NCBI GenBank assembly: GCA_015063485.1
Contig: SVUA01000002.1
Location: 1,454-65,453, forward strand
Source of the DNA: Oscillospiraceae bacterium
GTDB taxonomy: Bacteria > Bacillota > Clostridia > Oscillospirales > CAG-272
Direction: 5' to 3'
Length of the DNA stretch: 64,000 nt
The notes beneath the pieces are model-generated. The model saw only the letters and a program-made list of their open reading frames with translations. It ran no database searches and was not told where the DNA came from. Both the position numbers and the translations under genes were made by a program. Positions within the stretch are counted from its first letter, which is position 1, and every line of letters starts with the position of its first letter. This document shows positions 3,467-61,241 of this stretch, in pieces.

Positions 3467-3495
3467 TTGACACGTAATGTTTTTGATGTTATAAT
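3467..3495 (+). promoter_or_regulatory. sigma-A type promoter for the riboswitch-controlled operon
   Basis: TTGACA (3467-3472), 17-nt spacer, TATAAT (3490-3495), with TGATGT upstream of the -10. Confidence 0.6.
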
Positions 3496-3508
3496 TATAT
3501 GGTATATT

Positions 3509-3631
3509 GATCGATAAGCGACTGCACACGGGTCGCTTCAAGTAGGGAAAGTACGGTGAAAAGCCGTCGCAGCAGCCACTGCCGTAATAAAGGTGTGCCG
3601 CCTTTTAAGTCGGAAGGCCTGCCGATCGATA
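3509..3631 (+). promoter_or_regulatory. cobalamin (B12) riboswitch
   Basis: The core GGGAAAGTACGGTGAAAAGCCGTCGCAGCAGCCACTGCCGTAA and the B12 box AAGTCGGAAGGCCTGCC (3607-3623) are present. P1 is ATCGAT/ATCGAT (3510-3515 / 3625-3630) and the P2 hairpin is AAGCGAC..GTCGCTT (3516-3538). This matches the cobalamin riboswitch consensus as I remember it. It sits between a consensus promoter and the first ORF. Confidence 0.85.
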
Positions 3632-3673
3632 TTTGGTAAAAAATACTTTGGGTAAATGAAAGGAAAAACCAAA

Positions 3674-6026: not shown

Positions 6027-6060
6027 TAGCGTATCCTTTCATTTTTTATTTTACAAAAAA

Positions 6061-6089
6061 ATTATACCACAAAAAGCATCTATTGTCAA
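6061..6089 (-). promoter_or_regulatory. sigma-A type promoter for the GNAT-deacetylase pair
   Basis: On the minus strand: TTGACA (6089-6084), 17 nt, TATAAT (6066-6061), with a TGTGG -16 extension. Confidence 0.6.
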
Positions 6090-24990: not shown

Positions 24991-25326
24991 TTCAAATTTT
25001 GATTTGTCGGTTGGTTTGATTTGACGAAATGGCTATGCACGAATAAAACGGTTATCATAAACTCTGTAGGGTCTGACGTCCTCGACAGCCCGAGACAAAT
25101 GGCAAAAAACGGACAAAACGGGAGGCTGATAGCCTCCCCTACAAATACCATATATTCTATTACCGTAGGGGAGGATATTATCCTCCCGCAAAACAAACGT
25201 CAAAATCCAAACGAAACGTGCTGTCGAGGACGTCAGACCCTACAGAGTTTATTCGTCGATATTTCGTTCAATTTTGCATTTTGCATTTTGCATTTATCAA
25301 TCTCCTCGATAAACCGCAATTTGTTT
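24991..25326 (-). repeat. TIR-bounded modular palindromic intergenic element, copy E1
   Basis: The left end is TTCAAATTTTGATTTGTCGG and the right end is CGATAAACCGCAATTTGTTT. Inside is a perfect 28-bp inverted repeat (25062-25089 / 25220-25247). Two GTAG-headed hairpins are also present: GGGAGGCTGATAGCCTCCC at 25120-25138 and GGGAGGATATTATCCTCCC at 25168-25186. Confidence 0.85.
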
Positions 25327-25469
25327 ATTGTAAAATTATTTTTTATCACGCAAAAGCAAATACTTTGTCATTGGATAGCCAAAAATTATCATTTTATATA
25401 CCAAAAACTTGACAATCAATATATATTTTGTTAAAATTTATATAACGACATTTTTTAAGGAGAATAAAA

Positions 25470-27536: not shown

Positions 27537-27777
27537 AAACAAATTGCGGTTTAGCGGGGAGATCGTTATATCGATTGATTGGTTAAAATCGTTTGTATTA
27601 GGACCGTCGAGGACGCCGTTCCCTACAAAATAAATTATGATCGTTAGGTTTTACCATCGCCTCACGGCGAGGAATATGTGTACAAATTTTTCTACACTGT
27701 AGGGACTGGCGTCCTCGACGGTCCGTTACCATTCGGTTAAATTTATGCGAACATAACACACCGATAAATCAAAATTT
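27537..27777 (+). repeat. TIR-bounded modular palindromic intergenic element, copy E2
   Basis: The ends are AAACAAATTGCGGTTTAGCGGGGA and CACCGATAAATCAAAATTT. The internal 27-bp inverted repeat is GGACCGTCGAGGACGCCGTTCCCTACA (27601-27627) / TGTAGGGACTGGCGTCCTCGACGGTCC (27698-27724), with 2 mismatches. Confidence 0.85.
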
Positions 27778-27979
27778 AGCTAAGTTGTTCTTTATAAATA
27801 TTTTTAATCTGTAAAAATATTTTATGTCGTAATGCTTTTGCTCATTTGTTTTCAAAGATCTCGTGAAATTGCTCATAGGTAAACGCTTAACATGAAAAAT
27901 GATTTGATTTCTCGCCGCATATTGACTTTTTATCTGTTTTAGTTTAATATAAAAAATAAGAGTACAAATTTGAGCCCAT

Positions 27980-31398: not shown

Positions 31399-31427
31399 CA
31401 ATAAACAGATAAATATTCCAAAAATTG

Positions 31428-31456
31428 TTGACAACTCAACGATTGTGTGGTATAAT
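31428..31456 (+). promoter_or_regulatory. sigma-A type promoter for the degV-family gene
   Basis: TTGACA (31428-31433), 17 nt ending in TGTGG, TATAAT (31451-31456). Confidence 0.65.
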
Positions 31457-31525
31457 ATAGCGGTATTTTTGTTGATGTCTCAACAAATTTCAAAAATCGA
31501 CAACATACCGATATGGAGGAAAATC

Positions 31526-32362
31526 ATGAGAAAAATCAAGATCGTTGCAGACTCGTCCTGCGATCTGTTTGAATTGAACCACACTGAGTTTGCTTACGCA
31601 CCGATGAAGATCATTACCGCAGAGAGTGAATTTATTGACGACCCCGCGCTTGACACCGATGCTATGGTCGAGCACTTTGATAAATACAAAGGAAAATCCA
31701 AATCTTCTTGCCCGAATACTGCCGATTGGCTCGACGCGTTCGGCGATGCCGACGATATTTTTTGCGTGACTATCACGAGCGGCCTTTCGGGCAGCTTCAA
31801 TTCCGCTTGCGCCGCAAAAAAGATCTACGAGGCAGATAATGAGGGGAAGCGCGTATTCGTGATAGATACCCTCTCCGCAGGACCTGAGGTCACGCTTACG
31901 GTAGAAAAATTAGAGGAATATATCGCGCAAGGTATGGCTTATGAGGATATTTGCAACCACATTACAGGTTATCTAAAAAAGACGGGACTTGTCTTTATGC
32001 TGAAATCCCTCAAGACCTTTGCAAACAACGGCAGAGTTTCTCCTGTCGTAGCAAAGATCGTCGGTATCGCGGGAATATGCATAGTCGGCAAGGCGAGCGA
32101 CGAAGGCACGCTCGAACCTATGCACAAATGCAGGGGCGAAAAGCGTTCGCTTGAGACCTTAGTCGAAACGCTTAGATCCGAAGGCTTCCGTTCTGGTAAG
32201 ATAAGCATAGGTCACTGTCAGAATCTCTCTGCGGCGGACCAATTAAAAAAATCAATACTTGCTAAATTCCAAAACGCGCAGGTCGAGATCCATAAATTGA
32301 AAGGACTTTGCAGCTTTTACGCTGAAAAAGGCGGTGTTCTCGTAGGCTTTGAAAAAGCGTGA
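31526..32362 (+). CDS. DegV family fatty-acid-binding protein
   Basis: The sequence MRKIKIVADSSCDL.. ..ITSGLSGSFNSA.. ..VIDTLSAGPE.. matches the DegV pattern. I place the start at ATG 31526, preceded by GGAGGA. The track ORF start at 31256 runs through the promoter and terminator region. Confidence 0.85.
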   Translation: MRKIKIVADSSCDLFELNHTEFAYAPMKIITAESEFIDDPALDTDAMVEHFDKYKGKSKSSCPNTADWLDAFGDADDIFCVTITSGLSGSFNSACAAKKIYEADNEGKRVFVIDTLSAGPEVTLTVEKLEEYIAQGMAYEDICNHITGYLKKTGLVFMLKSLKTFANNGRVSPVVAKIVGIAGICIVGKASDEGTLEPMHKCRGEKRSLETLVETLRSEGFRSGKISIGHCQNLSAADQLKKSILAKFQNAQVEIHKLKGLCSFYAEKGGVLVGFEKA

Positions 32363-32424
32363 GGGACGCGGGGGATGCGCTTACTTTTCTTTTGAAAAAG
32401 AAAAGTAAGCAAAAGAAAACAAAA
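32361..32424 (+). repeat. polypyrimidine/polypurine hairpin element abutting a stop codon, copy D1
   Basis: The sequence is GAGGGACGCGGGGGATGC + hairpin GCTTACTTTTCTTTT/AAAAGAAAAGTAAGC (32379-32410) + AAAAGAAAAC. It starts inside the degV TGA. Confidence 0.8.
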
Positions 32425-33324: not shown

Positions 33325-33398
33325 GTTTTCTTTTTTGGTTACTTTTTTCTTTTTTAAAAGAAAAAAGTAACGCGCGTCCTCCGCGTCCCTCGCGTCCC
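33325..33398 (-). repeat. polypyrimidine/polypurine hairpin element abutting a stop codon, copy D2
   Basis: On the minus strand the sequence reads (TA)GGGGACGCGAGGGACGCGGAGGACGCGC + hairpin GTTACTTTTTTCTTTT/AAAAGAAAAAAGTAAC + CAAAAAAGAAAAC. It starts at the rnc TAG. Confidence 0.8.
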
Positions 33399-35253: not shown

Positions 35254-35541
35254 TTCAAATTTTTATTTGTCGAGCAGTATGTGTTCGCACTAACCATGAG
35301 CCTTCTCCAGCGTGAGAATCTTGTTGCAAGCAACAGCCAAGTCCGACAAGTCGGACATTGGGTGGATTTTGCGAAGCAAAAGACGGATGAGGAGATCGTC
35401 GTTTAGTTTTTTTAAACCGTGTTCTCCTCATCAGTCGCTATCGCGACAGCTTCTCCGCTGGAGAAGCCCTTGGTTCTAACCGTTCACTTTTAATTTCGCC
35501 GTTTTAATATTTCAATCTTCTCGACAAATTACAATTCATTT
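35254..35541 (-). repeat. TIR-bounded modular palindromic intergenic element, diverged copy E7 (carries cruciform module C)
   Basis: The ends TTCAAATTTTTATTTGTCGAG and CTCGACAAATTACAATTCATTT are diverged versions of the family termini. The right ~75 bp align with copy E5. The interior at 35298-35469 is cruciform module copy 1. Confidence 0.65.
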
Positions 35542-42707: not shown

Positions 42708-42880
42708 GTTAAATACACCTCCGTATTTTGCCCTTTGGGCAAAAAAAATCATGCGAGAAGAGAATTTCCCCGCACGACACACACTTTTCACCCACCTATT
42801 TCGCGCGTGAAAAGAAAAAATATCAACCGAGCGCGCTCCATGGCGGCACGGTGAGAACGGAGAGTTCTGCTTCATTTGCT
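42708..42880 (-). promoter_or_regulatory. ~170-nt 5' leader of infC-rpmI-rplT (candidate L20-responsive leader)
   Basis: A long untranslated region lies between a perfect promoter and the infC RBS. It contains GC-rich segments and a GCCC-AAA-GGGC hairpin flanked by T/A runs just before the SD. Firmicute infC operons are known to carry an L20 leader. I did not fold it. Confidence 0.35.
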
Positions 42881-42885
42881 CATGT

Positions 42886-42914
42886 ATTATACCACAACCT
42901 TTTTTGATTGTCAA
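42886..42914 (-). promoter_or_regulatory. consensus sigma-A promoter of the infC operon
   Basis: On the minus strand: TTGACA (42914-42909), 17 nt ending in TGTGG, TATAAT (42891-42886). Confidence 0.7.
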
Positions 42915-42966
42915 GAGTTTTTTGAATTTTTTTGAAAATTTGTTTTTTATAACGAAATAAACAGAC

Positions 42967-43213
42967 AAACAAATTGCGGTTTATCGGGGACGCGATGAGG
43001 AAGACTTTTTTGAAAAACTCCTTCGCTTCGCTACGGGGCATGAACAAAGTTCATGCTCGTCCCCCTCAAACTCCCCTCAAAAACTTTCAAAAACAAGGCT
43101 TTGCATAACCGTTATGGCTATTTTTTTAACTTCTTTTAGGAAGTTTTTTGCCAAGCTTTTTTTCAAAAAAGCGGAAATCGCGTCCTTCGCGTCCCCGATA
43201 AATCAAAATTTGA
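42967..43213 (+). repeat. TIR-bounded modular palindromic intergenic element, copy E3
   Basis: The ends are AAACAAATTGCGGTTTATCGGGGACGCGA and TCGCGTCCCCGATAAATCAAAATTTGAA. These form a 25-nt terminal inverted repeat with 3 mismatches. The internal hairpins are GCATGAAC-AAA-GTTCATGC (43038-43056) and AACTTC..GAAGTT. Confidence 0.85.
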
Positions 43214-43411
43214 AATCTGATCATAAGGGGCAAAAAATCCCACTATTTTCTTTTGCGAAAAAATCAGGACGTGTCTTTGCGTCTCCTTCTACGACAAATG
43301 TCGCACCTTTCTGTATATCGCTCACAAAAATGCGGTCTGTTTTAATAAAAATTTTCTAATATGTATCTTTTTTCACGAAAAAATCTCCAAAAAATCGTTC
43401 AATTTGAACTA

Positions 43412-43440
43412 TTTACAAAATCGAATTTTTAAGTTATAAT
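43412..43440 (+). promoter_or_regulatory. sigma-A type promoter with no ORF downstream
   Basis: TTTACA (43412-43417), 17 nt, TATAAT (43435-43440). Confidence 0.5.
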
Positions 43441-43446
43441 ATTATA

Positions 43447-43588
43447 GCTGTCAGGCGGCACCAAGTCCACAGCGCCACGCACAACGGTCATCGTTCATTT
43501 GCGGAATATCAATCTTATGATACCAACGCGCAGATGAGATCTCGGTTGTGCTTTTTTATTTTTCTCGGAGCTTTTACTCCGTTTTTTT
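43447..43588 (+). ncRNA. candidate small RNA (unknown family) upstream of lon
   Basis: No ORF longer than 6 codons is present. A long imperfect hairpin (GCACAAC..TCATC / GATGA..GTTGTGC) ends in TTTTTTATTTTT at 43552-43563. A second clean terminator follows: CGGAG-CTTTTA-CTCCG + TTTTTTT (43566-43588). Confidence 0.3.
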
Positions 43589-47488: not shown

Positions 47489-48126
47489 CGAGAATGATAT
47501 TCGTGCGCCACGGATACAGCGTGGCAAACGAGGAGGAACGCTTTGCGGGACACTCGGACTTTACGCTTGCCGCGATAGGTCTTGAGCAAGCAAAGTGTGT
47601 GGCTGAATATATTACCAAAAATGAAAAGGTCGACAAGATATATTCAAGCGGACTTTTACGCACGACCCAGACAGTTCAACCTACCGCCGATGCGTTAGGA
47701 CTCCCCGTCATAGCCGATCACGGCTTGCGTGAGATATTCGCGGGCGAATGGGAAGGTATGAAATTCGTCGATATATTCAACCAATACAACGACGATTTCA
47801 GCATATGGCTGAACGAACTCGCGAACGTTCGTTGCACGGGCGGAGAATCAGCAAAAGAGCTTTTTGAACGTGTCTCCGACGCGGTCGTGCGACTTGGCGA
47901 GGAAAACGACGGAAAAACGCTTTTACTTGCCACTCACGCAACACCGATGAGAGTGGTAGATGCATTCGCTGACGGAGATACCTATGAAAAAATAGCAAGC
48001 CACAAAGCTCCGCCAAACGCATCGCTTCATATCTACGAATACGAAAACGGCAAATTGACACGAATAAAGACGAATATCGTCGAACACCTTAACGGACAGA
48101 TAACGAAGCTGCCCCCCACAGTTTGA
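47485..48126 (+). CDS. histidine phosphatase family protein, paralogue 2
   Basis: Carries FVRHGYSVAN, ..SSGLLRTTQTV.. and ..ATHATPM... Its start overlaps the upstream stop (ATGA). Confidence 0.8.
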   Translation: MTRMIFVRHGYSVANEEERFAGHSDFTLAAIGLEQAKCVAEYITKNEKVDKIYSSGLLRTTQTVQPTADALGLPVIADHGLREIFAGEWEGMKFVDIFNQYNDDFSIWLNELANVRCTGGESAKELFERVSDAVVRLGEENDGKTLLLATHATPMRVVDAFADGDTYEKIASHKAPPNASLHIYEYENGKLTRIKTNIVEHLNGQITKLPPTV

Positions 48127-49473: not shown

Positions 49474-49606
49474 TTCAAATTTTGATTTGTCGGTTGGTCG
49501 TTTCCGTAGGGGAGCATTCCATATGCTCCCGAAATAACGGGCGGATATTGAATCCGCCACTACGGGTTTGTGCGAACACATCTCCCCGCTAAACCGCAAT
49601 TTCTTT
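49474..49606 (-). repeat. TIR-bounded modular palindromic intergenic element, copy E4 (short)
   Basis: The ends are TTCAAATTTTGATTTGTCGG and TCTCCCCGCTAAACCGCAATTTCTTT. The interior has an outer stem CCGTAG (49504-49509) / CTACGG (49560-49565). This stem encloses the hairpins GGGAGCAT..ATGCTCCC (49510-49530) and GGCGGAT..ATCCGCC (49540-49558). Confidence 0.85.
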
Positions 49607-49608
49607 GC

Positions 49609-49913
49609 TTCAAATTTTGATTTGTCGGTGGGTTTGATTTGACGAAACGGGAACGCACGAATGAAACGGTAATGCACGAACGAAACAGTTTTCACCAAGA
49701 GCCTTCTCCAGCGGAGAAGGTGGCAAAACGGGCGGACGTAACTCCCGTTTTGACGGATGAGGAGATCGCCGTTTAGTCTATGTATAATTTGATCTCCTCA
49801 TCAGTCACCTTCGGTGACAGCTTCTCCGCTGGAGAAGCCTCTTGGTTCTAAACGTTTACTTTTATTCTTGACATTTTAATATTTTAAACTGTCCGATAAA
49901 CCGCAATTTGTTT
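49609..49913 (-). repeat. TIR-bounded modular palindromic intergenic element, copy E5 (carries cruciform module C)
   Basis: The ends are TTCAAATTTTGATTTGTCGG and CCGATAAACCGCAATTTGTTT. The left ~70 bp align with E1 and the right ~75 bp align with E7. The interior at 49699-49839 is cruciform module copy 2. Confidence 0.85.
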
Positions 49914-52138: not shown

Positions 52139-52192
52139 AGGATGCGTGTTACTTTCTTTTTCGAGAAAAAGAAAGTAACCAAAGAAAAAAAA
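52139..52192 (+). repeat. polypyrimidine/polypurine hairpin element abutting a stop codon, copy D3
   Basis: The sequence is AGGATGCGT + hairpin GTTACTTTCTTTTT-CGAG-AAAAAGAAAGTAAC (52148-52179) + CAAAGAAAAAAAAC. It starts 1 nt after the scpB TAA. Confidence 0.8.
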
Positions 52193-59238: not shown

Positions 59239-59298
59239 AATAAGCCTCCATATCAGAAAATTTAAAGCAAACGCAAGTCAGCGCGCCTTTACCGTATA

Positions 59299-59327
59299 AT
59301 TATACCACAATATCCTTATTATGTCAA
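59299..59327 (-). promoter_or_regulatory. sigma-A type promoter for the nucleotidyltransferase gene
   Basis: On the minus strand: TTGACA (59327-59322), 17 nt ending in TGTGG, TATAAT (59304-59299). Confidence 0.6.
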
Positions 59328-59332
59328 GAACT

Positions 59333-60232
59333 TCACTTCTTTATCCTTTTGCTCGGCAATTCGCACGCCACAGCCGCGCCCAAAATAAGCACTGCGCCTA
59401 CTATCTCCCACACTCCCATAGGCTCTTTCAGAACGAGCGCGGACAAGATTATAGCAACGACTGGATCTATATAGCTACATATCGCTACGCTCTGCGTTGG
59501 CAAAGACCCCACCGAATTGAAATAAAGCGCGTACGAGATACCCGTATGTATTATTCCCACGACCAAAAGTAAAATAACGGTTTTTAAGTTAAACACGTAT
59601 AACGGAATATCCTCCGCTATAAGCGTATACGGCAATATCACGATAGCCGCCGAGGCGAGCTGAATGATAGTTTTATCATACGCAGAAAGCGCTCCGAGAC
59701 CTCGGTTTATAAGAATTACCGAAGCGTAAAGCAGAGCCGACAAAAGCCCGAAAATTATGCCCTTTACGGCTATCTTTCCGCCATTAAGAACGCCCGAAAC
59801 GAAAACCATGCCGATAAGCGCGCAAGCCGCGCAAAGTCCTTGCTTTATGCCAAAACGTTCCTTGAATATAAAAGGAGCGGCTATCAACACGATTATCGGC
59901 GCGGTATAATAGCATAGCGTTGCCGTTGCCACCGAGGTGTAATTGTAAGCTTCAAAAAGAAATATCCAGTTAAACCCTATCAACGCGCCTGACAGACAAA
60001 GCAATATCAAGTGCTTTTTTATTGCCCTCAAATCAAGCTTTTTTCTTGATATAAGGACGATAAGCAAAAGCGCGAGAGTTCCGATAAGTCCCCTAAAAAA
60101 CGCTATCGCTCCCGACGGAAGTGGTATCAGCCTCCTGAACAGTCCGATAGTTCCGAAGACCGACATCGAAAGTATAAGCGCTCCTCGAGCAAGTTTTGCG
60201 CTATTTTTGCCGTTATTTCGGTTAATATCCAT
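59333..60232 (-). CDS. EamA/DMT superfamily transporter
   Basis: It has about 10 TM helices in two similar halves. I place the start at ATG 60232 (MDINRNNGKNSAKLARGALILS..). Confidence 0.75.
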   Translation of the reverse strand: MDINRNNGKNSAKLARGALILSMSVFGTIGLFRRLIPLPSGAIAFFRGLIGTLALLLIVLISRKKLDLRAIKKHLILLCLSGALIGFNWIFLFEAYNYTSVATATLCYYTAPIIVLIAAPFIFKERFGIKQGLCAACALIGMVFVSGVLNGGKIAVKGIIFGLLSALLYASVILINRGLGALSAYDKTIIQLASAAIVILPYTLIAEDIPLYVFNLKTVILLLVVGIIHTGISYALYFNSVGSLPTQSVAICSYIDPVVAIILSALVLKEPMGVWEIVGAVLILGAAVACELPSKRIKK

Positions 60233-60340: not shown

Positions 60341-60508
60341 AAACAAATTGCGGTTTATCGCTGAGTTTAACAAACATGGTAGGGCGGGGGGCTTGCTCCC
60401 GCCGAAATAAACATATTAAACCGAACATAACGGCGGGAGATAAACCCCCGCCCTACAACGAATACGCGTAGGTGCGAACATAACCCCACCGACAAATCAA
60501 AATTTGAA
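60341..60508 (+). repeat. TIR-bounded modular palindromic intergenic element, copy E6
   Basis: The ends are AAACAAATTGCGGTTTATCG and CCACCGACAAATCAAAATTTGAA. The interior has nested stems: GTAGGGCGGGGG (60379-60390) / CCCCCGCCCTAC (60445-60456) and CTCCCGCCG (60396-60404) / CGGCGGGAG (60431-60439). Confidence 0.85.
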
Positions 60509-61118: not shown

Positions 61119-61214
61119 TTGACAGAAGTTTACTTCTGTGTTATAATCATAATCGGAAGTTACAATCCGATTATACCACAAAATCGGAAGTTTGTCAAGT
61201 GTTTATCGGAAGTT
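61119..61214 (+). promoter_or_regulatory. promoter plus repeated operator-like sites of the XRE/ImmA module
   Basis: The promoter is TTGACA (61119-61124), 17 nt, TATAAT (61142-61147). A palindrome CAGAAGT-TT-ACTTCTG lies in the spacer. Three direct ATCGGAAGTT repeats sit at 61152, 61183 and 61205. The first is part of the palindrome AATCGGA-N7-TCCGATT. Confidence 0.6.
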
Positions 61215-61241
61215 TTTGAAATATTTTTGGAGGTTTATGCC

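Follow-up and report, generated by a model that had tools for sequence, protein, structure and literature searches.

A multi-copy family of palindromic intergenic elements with asymmetric inverted ends in uncultured gut Oscillospirales

Seven short elements, hereafter called E1 to E7, were found in a 64-kb stretch of DNA from an Oscillospiraceae bacterium (GenBank assembly GCA_015063485.1, contig SVUA01000002.1, positions 1,454 to 65,453), which was analysed over its whole length and is hereafter called the window. They lie where a preliminary description of the sequence had placed them, sum to 1,718 bp (2.7% of the window) and belong to a lineage-specific, multi-copy repeat family of uncultured gut Oscillospirales which has not been described previously. 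The neighbouring genes are ordinary chromosomal genes of a spore former, encoding MBOAT, GtaA-type glutaminase, CotF, PlsX, TrmFO, IF3, Lon, LysA, M50 peptidase and EamA proteins. E1 (336 bp, 24991..25326, minus orientation) occupies the spacer of the divergent gene pair MBOAT and GtaA, upstream of a conserved GtaA promoter (25409-25437), and E2 (241 bp, 27537..27777, plus orientation) that of the convergent pair GtaA and CotF, past the GtaA terminator. E3 (288 bp, 35254..35541, minus) separates plsX from trmFO, E4 (247 bp, 42967..43213, plus) infC from lon, and E7 (168 bp, 60341..60508, plus) two genes on the minus strand. The spacer between lysA and the M50 peptidase gene holds both E5 (133 bp, 49474..49606, minus) and E6 (305 bp, 49609..49913, minus), which stand head-to-tail, 2 bp apart.

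When realistic gene starts were used, none of the seven copies interrupted a gene, in agreement with the preliminary description, which had called all of them intergenic. An open reading frame (ORF) of 137 amino acids across E1 (25021-25434) is a gene in the public annotation; it has no Pfam match and is therefore probably spurious, an instance of the false reading frames which the elements had been expected to generate. No ORF with a family match was found inside E1-E7, a scan for tRNA and tmRNA genes found none, and none of the Rfam 15 covariance models matched any of the elements, either at the gathering score or at E <= 0.5.

Each of the seven elements is bounded by one A end and one B end, inverted relative to each other. 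In the common orientation an element reads AA-CAAATTGCGGTTTAKCGG... ...CCGAYAAATCAAAATTTG-AA, with the A end, AA-CAAATTGCGGTTTAKCGG(GGAS), on the left and the B end, the reverse complement of TT-CAAATTTTGATTTRTCGG, on the right. At up to 3 mismatches the A-end 21-mer CAAATTGCGGTTTATCGGGGA had seven matches in the window and the B-end 21-mer CAAATTTTGATTTATCGGGGA had five, whereas dinucleotide-preserving shuffles gave none for either. The inverted ends are 18-25 nt long and agree with each other at 15 of 18 positions. A terminal inverted repeat (TIR) of about 20-25 nt, best seen in the copy at 42967-43213, had been proposed earlier, and it is indeed in this copy, E4, that the ends match best, over 26 nt at 88%. 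E3, already noted as diverged, deviates at both ends (GAATTGTAATTTGTCGAG / CAAATTTTTATTTGTCGAG). The B and A ends of E1 lie at 24991-25010 and 25303-25326, respectively, and the A and B ends of E2 at 27537-27560 and 27758-27778.

All seven copies are predicted to form a long single-strand hairpin, with DNA z-scores from -4.2 to -10.5 (-10.5 for E1, -8.8 for E3) and near-equal energies on both strands. Their interiors fall into several subfamilies, each of them a nested palindrome. Tight GC-rich hairpins tagged with GTAG are present in E1, E2, E5 and E7 only, and the same four contain imperfect, GC-rich palindromes 20-40 nt in length whose GTAG at one end is unpaired, as in repetitive extragenic palindromic (REP) sequences. 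The earlier statement that the hairpins of the interiors almost always start with GTAG was thus too broad, and in the "CTACGGGGCATGAAC" hairpin of E4, which had been given as an example, the tag stands on the wrong side for a canonical head. Perfect GC-rich GTAG hairpins in the window are confined to the elements. In the clostridial loci, GTAG stood next to perfect GC-rich hairpins more often than any other tetranucleotide, AAAA included (15 of 260 flank positions).

The commonest GTAG unit, hereafter called REP-X (GTAGGGACMGGCGTCCTCGACKGTCC), forms an inverted doublet, the two units being separated by about 72 nt with a mini-hairpin at the centre. In E2 the two arms lie at 27601-27627 and 27698-27724, and the central spacer (27628-27697) holds the mini-hairpin CGCCTCACGGCG. 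E1 has outer inverted arms of 36 nt with a GTAG-tagged REP-X-like unit (25057-25092 and 25217-25252) and an inner pair of GTAG hairpins at 25120-25142 (minus strand) and 25165-25187 (plus strand). Two different GTAG hairpins with their tags outward make up E5 (49506-49531, plus strand, and 49538-49563, minus strand), and E7 contains one long GTAG...CTAC palindrome (60379-60456).

The REP-X core of about 125 bp sits within E2 and its relatives, and it was also found without A or B ends in the related loci L005, L031, L060 (twice) and L187, bordered there by inverted repeats of other kinds, which are specific to each copy, or by none. REP-X therefore occurs as a repeated unit resembling a REP doublet forming hairpin (REPIN), both with and without the shell formed by the two ends, and singlets were also seen. 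The GTAG hairpins thus form a class of repeats which can be separated from the TIR-bounded element and is not intrinsic to it; they are found without TIRs and are missing from E3, E4 and E6. The REP-X 21-mer was present in 13 IMG/VR contigs, mostly as singlets beside other GTAG hairpins, and these contigs came largely from the metagenomes of the window genome itself. Either these contigs are pieces of prophages or hosts belonging to other Clostridia, or they point to a horizontal spread of REP-like units. Some of the IMG/VR contigs with REP-X and other GTAG hairpins (L174-L186) appeared to be more GC-rich than the window.

The palindromes of E3, E4 and E6 are of other kinds (GCTTCTCCAGCGGAGAAGC, GATGAGGAGA...TCTCCTCATC and GAGGGAGAC-T/A loop-GTCCCCCTC). 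The interior of E3, with its GCTTCTCCAGCGGAGAAGC and GATGAGGAGA hairpins, is related to that of E6, which is 80% identical to the copy in L053. A second class of module, with a GGGGACGCG-type tag and an AT-loop hairpin, builds the interiors of E4 and copies of its type and also occurs alone just past stop codons. One such small module outside the copies (32362..32411, plus strand) starts at a stop codon with TGAGGGACGCGGGGGATGCG, followed by the AT-rich hairpin CTTACTTTTCTTTTGAAAAAGAAAAGTAAG, and further related modules were found at 33326-33398 and 52141-52180, in addition to the seven copies. The subterminal box GTGCGAACA(Y)A, previously assigned to E2, E4, E6 and E7, was present in E2 and E7, absent from E4 and E6, and present also in E3 and E5. 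In E5 it reads GTGCGAACACA (49570-49580) and adjoins the A end in inverted orientation, and in E7 it lies at 60472-60482.

Units of the family are both nested and arrayed in tandem. E4 has an extra hairpin of about 40 bp inserted at the junction of loop and stem (about 43019-43060), which has no counterpart in L042 and L022, and head-to-tail tandem arrays were seen in E6-E5, L054 and L041. The suggestion that the modular interiors arose by recombination or nested insertion is borne out by these nested and tandem copies and by the inversions described below. In SGB_3099 and SIG562 each end-bounded element is itself enclosed by an outer inverted repeat, GGWTCTTCACGGAAAGTTGTGGGAT...ATCCCACAAYTTTCCGTRAAGAACC (L074 6063-6230, L077 5422-5750, L049 and L066), the junctions of which (GAAGAAAA / CATTTCCCTTAA) are identical at different loci; this outer repeat may be another repeat family hosting the first.

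The family extends well beyond the window, as had been anticipated. An exact-pattern scan with the 18-mer ACAAATTGCGGTTTAKCG against 185,579 species genomes returned 83 stretches, about 50 of which belong to about 14 Oscillospirales species represented by metagenome-assembled genomes (MAGs). The carriers are classified as Eubacteriales (SGB_429, SGB_1902, SGB_8045 and SGB_3400), Acutalibacteraceae (SGB_3099 and SGB_1827), Oscillospiraceae (SIG650, SIG562 and RGIG1849), three Faecousia species, Clostridia RGIG1903 and Ruminiclostridium RGIG4199. Many of the matches lie less than 200 bp from a contig end, as would be expected of a repeat which breaks assemblies. A relaxed end pattern matched 13 times in the window and not at all in 890 kb from more distantly related Clostridia or in 26 kb of the next-closest species. 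In total, 35 end-paired copies of 87-534 bp were extracted from these loci. The subfamily of E2 comprises six copies with 80-97% identity, and E2 itself is 90-91% identical to copies in locus L047. In SGB_3099 and SIG562 both ends are A-like, whereas the closer relatives of the window keep the asymmetry between A and B (GCGG versus TTGA).

Contigs with 99.97-100% identity to the window were found in the JGI metagenomes 3300031555, 3300024270, 3300018475 and 3300018495 and in one ENA assembly, and some of them break inside E1 or E4. The closest other genome is SGB_429 (GCA_045533915.1), the GtaA protein of which is 95% identical and the DNA 82-90% identical over a syntenic stretch of 22 kb. Roughly 30 of the 83 stretches are single matches in unrelated phyla, near the number expected for a pattern of this length, and are attributed to chance. 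For the elements themselves, chance similarity or an assembly artefact has a practically negligible probability, since the shuffled sequences gave no matches and identical copies were present in independent assemblies from five samples.

No known non-coding RNA, plasmid, phage or published repeat matched the elements in the Rfam scan or in the other searches made, in line with the undescribed family which the preliminary description had proposed. BLAST of E5 and E6 against plasmids and of E2 against phages gave no match, and the A-end 17-mer had four matches in IMG/VR, all of them chance matches without the features of an element. The literature search found general papers on REP sequences and their transposases, and no description of the end sequence or of a REP family, or of a family of miniature inverted-repeat transposable elements (MITEs), in Clostridia.

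Orthologous intergenic sites differ in whether, and in which form, they carry an element. The spacer between lysA and the M50 peptidase gene measures about 545 bp in the window, with E5 and E6, as against about 35-100 bp in the related contigs L090, L091 and L093 (LysA identity 65-82%), from which both elements are missing. At the E1 site of SGB_429 a B-type end stands at the homologous position, but the interior adjoining it, about 85 bp long, is a different one and there is no A end, and the E3 site of this genome holds an E4-type module without ends together with tandem repeats. Downstream of the RNase III gene, SGB_429 has a REP-X doublet and the window has none. An operon junction of 12 bp in L022 (SGB_1902) corresponds to a compound block of 473 bp with an element in L059 (SGB_429), the flanks being 96% and 84% identical. 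The orthologous site of E7 in SGB_1902 (L071) also holds an A end, at which the contig breaks. Between SGB_3099 and SIG562, with flanks 96-98% identical, interiors of 248 and 534 bp which are unrelated to each other lie within one and the same pair of ends, and synteny also breaks at the element.

Three further differences were observed at or near these sites. In the plsX-trmFO spacer of SGB_429 (L187 20330-20490), equivalent to the E3 site, there is a tandem duplication of some 70 bp (GGTTACTTTTCCTTTTTTATTGGTATGAATTAACAAGAAACAGATAACCTCTGCAACGTTTTCTTTTT). A TetR-family gene lies between the GtaA and CotF genes of SGB_429 (L187 12042-12722), at the position of E2 in the window. A contig of the same species as the window (L084 5768-6701, 99.98% identity, JGI 3300024270) departs from it past position 47547, where a PLDc_2 gene replaces the second His_Phos_1 gene; this is a strain-level gene replacement.

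The very strong folding, the terminator-like scores of some hairpins and the position of the small modules directly past stop codons could also be read as signs of RNA or DNA hairpins selected by the host as terminators, mRNA stabilisers or insulators, and not of mobile DNA. This explanation is decidedly unlikely. There was no Rfam match even at the permissive threshold, both strands fold equally well, and the copies lie in either direction relative to transcription. In relatives the same operon junctions are kept with spacers of 12-100 bp and no element, and copies break assemblies and mark a synteny breakpoint. Side effects of the elements on flanking transcripts are nevertheless plausible.

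Interiors were also found flipped relative to the ends. Compared with the window copy, the 72-nt centre of the other E2-type copies is direct in two (86-88% identity) and reverse-complemented in three (93-94%), so that three of the six copies are flipped, and the asymmetric outer parts keep one orientation in spite of this. Likewise, in L023 and L073, two copies in one genome, the A and B ends are identical, and the interiors, each about 370 bp long, reach 89-90% identity only when one of them is reverse-complemented. Conserved ends with variable interiors in both orientations are also what invertons would show, in which a master invertase would act at the inverted ends and regulate the neighbouring genes by flipping the interiors. 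Such a role is highly improbable for these elements. Both flipped sets are paralogous copies at different loci and not alleles, and a single orientation was seen in seven independent contigs of the same species from five samples. The interiors are palindromic, so inversion would change little, and E2, between convergent genes, offers no target for a promoter switch. In addition, relatives lack elements at orthologous sites, and the A and B ends are consistently different.

Flank logos of 34 copies showed no matching target-site duplication (TSD) and no longer repeat. The copies are flanked by AA on the left in 25-30 of 34 and on the right in 23-27 of 34, always in one orientation relative to the direction from A to B; where AA was lacking on one side, the opposite side showed no matching dinucleotide. 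These results bear on whether the elements are classical MITEs, that is, whether the shell is an internally deleted insertion sequence of the DDE type, moved by cut-and-paste through its TIRs, with the GTAG hairpins and other palindromes as passengers which entered neutral intergenic DNA later. In favour of this are the TIRs of 18-25 nt, the size of 87-534 bp, the dispersed, non-coding, intergenic copies, subfamilies with conserved interiors such as the six E2-type copies, and GTAG modules which are demonstrably separable from the shell. The lack of a TSD and of a matching sequence opposite the sides without AA argues against it, as does the fixed orientation of the flanks, which a symmetric staggered cut would not give. 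Further, no end pair 0.7-3 kb apart and enclosing an ORF was present in any locus of the ACAAATTGCGGTTTAKCG scan, and the plasmid and phage collections gave no match. A classical MITE is therefore a possible but doubtful identification, although it is the most serious of the competing ones.

The missing TSD, the consistent asymmetry of the ends, the hairpin content and the GTAG tags together favour a strand-specific route of movement that leaves no duplication. An enzyme of the IS200/IS605, REP-associated tyrosine transposase (RAYT) or TIR-associated tyrosine transposase (TIRYT) kind, acting on single-stranded hairpins, would fit these properties best. When compared with the palindrome-associated transposable elements (PATEs) derived from IS200/IS605, which have subterminal hairpins and no TIRs and insert 3' of a fixed tetra- or pentanucleotide, the elements agree in the lack of a TSD and in the A-rich left flank of fixed orientation and disagree in having clear terminal inverted repeats.

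The copies are best explained, with a probability of roughly 45%, as lineage-specific, non-autonomous mobile repeats of the foldback type, present in uncultured Oscillospirales and moved in trans. The asymmetric inverted end pair forms a shell round nested palindromic modules, one class of which, the REP-like GTAG hairpins, often stands as REPIN-like doublets and consists of repeats in their own right. Both layers would be moved in trans by enzymes which are encoded elsewhere in the genome and which recognise hairpins in single-stranded DNA. The likeliest enzyme would be a Y1 transposase of the HUH superfamily, of the RAYT or TIRYT type, because there is no detectable TSD, the ends are consistently different and the modules are tagged with GTAG. 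New units would insert within or directly beside existing ones, creating direct and inverted repeats, and recombination or template switching between these repeats would then delete, swap or flip interiors without moving the outermost bases of the ends. Such a process would be expected to pass through intermediates like the nested hairpin of E4 and the tandem arrays, and swapped or flipped interiors need no special enzyme.

It is unlikely, by comparison, that the A and B ends are not the termini of a transposon but fixed recombination sites, at which a dedicated hairpin-processing enzyme, either an HUH enzyme or a recombinase, exchanges and inverts palindromic cassettes. If this were true, these cassettes, together with GTAG REPINs shared by Clostridia and the IMG/VR contigs, would constitute the first REP/RAYT-type system in Firmicutes and a new cassette-exchange behaviour.

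Several observations weigh against the reading of the copies as foldback repeats moved in trans by a Y1 enzyme. Genuine TIRs characterise DDE elements as a rule, and not the IS200/IS605 group, and three of the seven copies have no GTAG hairpin. The assessment of the TSD rests on the comparison of flanks, two orthologous comparisons at high identity having given no clean empty site. Nor was any polymorphism that would point to present activity seen among strains. The contigs carrying exactly the Lon, GtaA and LysA proteins of the window came either from the same strain (99.97-100% identical) or from one at 98.7% identity and had the same copies throughout (for the EamA protein there was no record), so the predicted variation in presence and absence was seen between related species only.

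No gene for a RAYT, an IS200-like protein or any other transposase came to light, either in the window or in the 1.73 Mb of related DNA that was fetched. The search for Y1 enzymes combined tblastn, using IS200 TnpA, Escherichia coli RayT and COG1943-like queries, with a scan for an HUH motif followed by Y..NP; validation against NCBIfam NF047646 covered RayT and the COG1943-like protein and not the IS200 query. A weak Y1 match in L080 was rejected, as it lies inside an ORF of 915 amino acids. A RAYT profile search of IMG/VR returned one fragment, and that of a protein database the RayT of Enterobacteriaceae only. A published survey of 2013 reported GTAG REP sequences from Proteobacteria, Cyanobacteria, Chloroflexi and the Planctomycetes-Verrucomicrobia-Chlamydiae (PVC) group and did not mention Firmicutes (PMC3733652). 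RAYTs of group 1 have been noted in Clostridia (Bertels et al. 2017).

The preliminary description had suggested that the elements combine the properties of REP sequences and MITEs. The TIRs and the GTAG doublets support this; the separable GTAG hairpins, the lack of a TSD and the outcome of the transposase search do not. With REP and REPIN sequences and the bacterial interspersed mosaic elements (BIMEs) of E. coli, the family shares imperfect palindromes which are rich in GC, measure 20-40 nt and have an unpaired GTAG tag on the 5' side, a frequent arrangement as inverted doublets round a spacer, an extragenic and clustered location, a mosaic of palindromic and non-palindromic parts, and unlike units at orthologous intergenic sites of related species. 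It differs from the REP/REPIN-RAYT systems in that the host is a Firmicute, that the GTAG units of the window occur only inside a second, TIR-bounded shell and that no RAYT was found in the DNA covered, and its sequences are unrelated to the Y and Z REPs of E. coli. Membership of the REP/RAYT group is thus suggested by resemblance only.

Bacterial MITEs such as RUP, bcr1, EFAR and Correia/NEMIS are small, non-coding, intergenic elements with inverted ends and long hairpins, in dozens to hundreds of copies, and the BOX element of Streptococcus pneumoniae (boxA-boxBn-boxC) has conserved end modules and a variable interior. By these general descriptions, the elements resemble MITEs in their small size, non-coding intergenic nature, inverted ends and long hairpins, and BOX, in architecture only, in their conserved ends and variable interior. 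In contrast to the MITEs and BOX, neither a TSD nor, in the fetched loci, a cognate insertion sequence was found for them. Their interiors are unrelated between subfamilies, and are not repeats of one module, and they have been exchanged or inverted between ends which stay fixed.

Di Nocera et al. (2013; PMC3733652) described TIRtrons, which are long inverted repeats in families of moderate abundance and are associated with Y1 transposases of the TIRYT type, instead of or together with GTAG REPs, and, in Pseudomonas, TIRs in which a GTAG unit is joined to an unrelated stem-loop. The elements share with these the composite structure of GTAG units and other stem-loops. The interior parts of the ends, GGGGAGAT and GGGGACGC, are loosely similar to the TIRYT motif GGGGWSAS, GGGGAGAT agreeing at 7 of 8 positions by eye and GGGGACGC imperfectly. 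In this comparison, which is based on the published motif and description, the clostridial family differs in having no known TIRYT gene.

Recognition of the family should improve the assembly of MAGs, which these elements break, and remove spurious gene calls. With this family, the range of GTAG-tagged, REP-like repeats would reach Firmicutes, and, if a Y1 transposase were found, a testable REP/RAYT system would be available outside Proteobacteria. The copies also offer a naturally occurring set of palindromes, some nested and others flipped or swapped, in which the evolution of foldback repeats, and the reshaping of intergenic regions and operon junctions such as the lysA-M50 spacer, can be followed.

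Other features were noticed in the window. The direct and inverted repeat families D2, D12, I2, I6 and I20 do not belong to the element family and are ordinary promoters; these recurrent strong promoters with an extended -10 region (TTGACA-N17-TGTGGTATAAT) lie at 6050-6089, 31411-31465, 42875-42931, 59288-59333 and 61159-61228. A cobalamin riboswitch (RF00174) at 3495-3640 on the plus strand scored 45.8 bits (E 2.6e-8), above the gathering score of 31.5, in the permissive Rfam run only, the default gathering run having missed it. Between E4 and lon (43352-43557), a promoter-like sequence, TTCAATTTGAAC...TATAAT, is followed by a GC-rich stretch of about 110 nt which ends in a terminator-like hairpin and a T-run. 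This block, which has no Rfam match and is inverted relative to the flanking genes in L090, is probably an independent small RNA gene.

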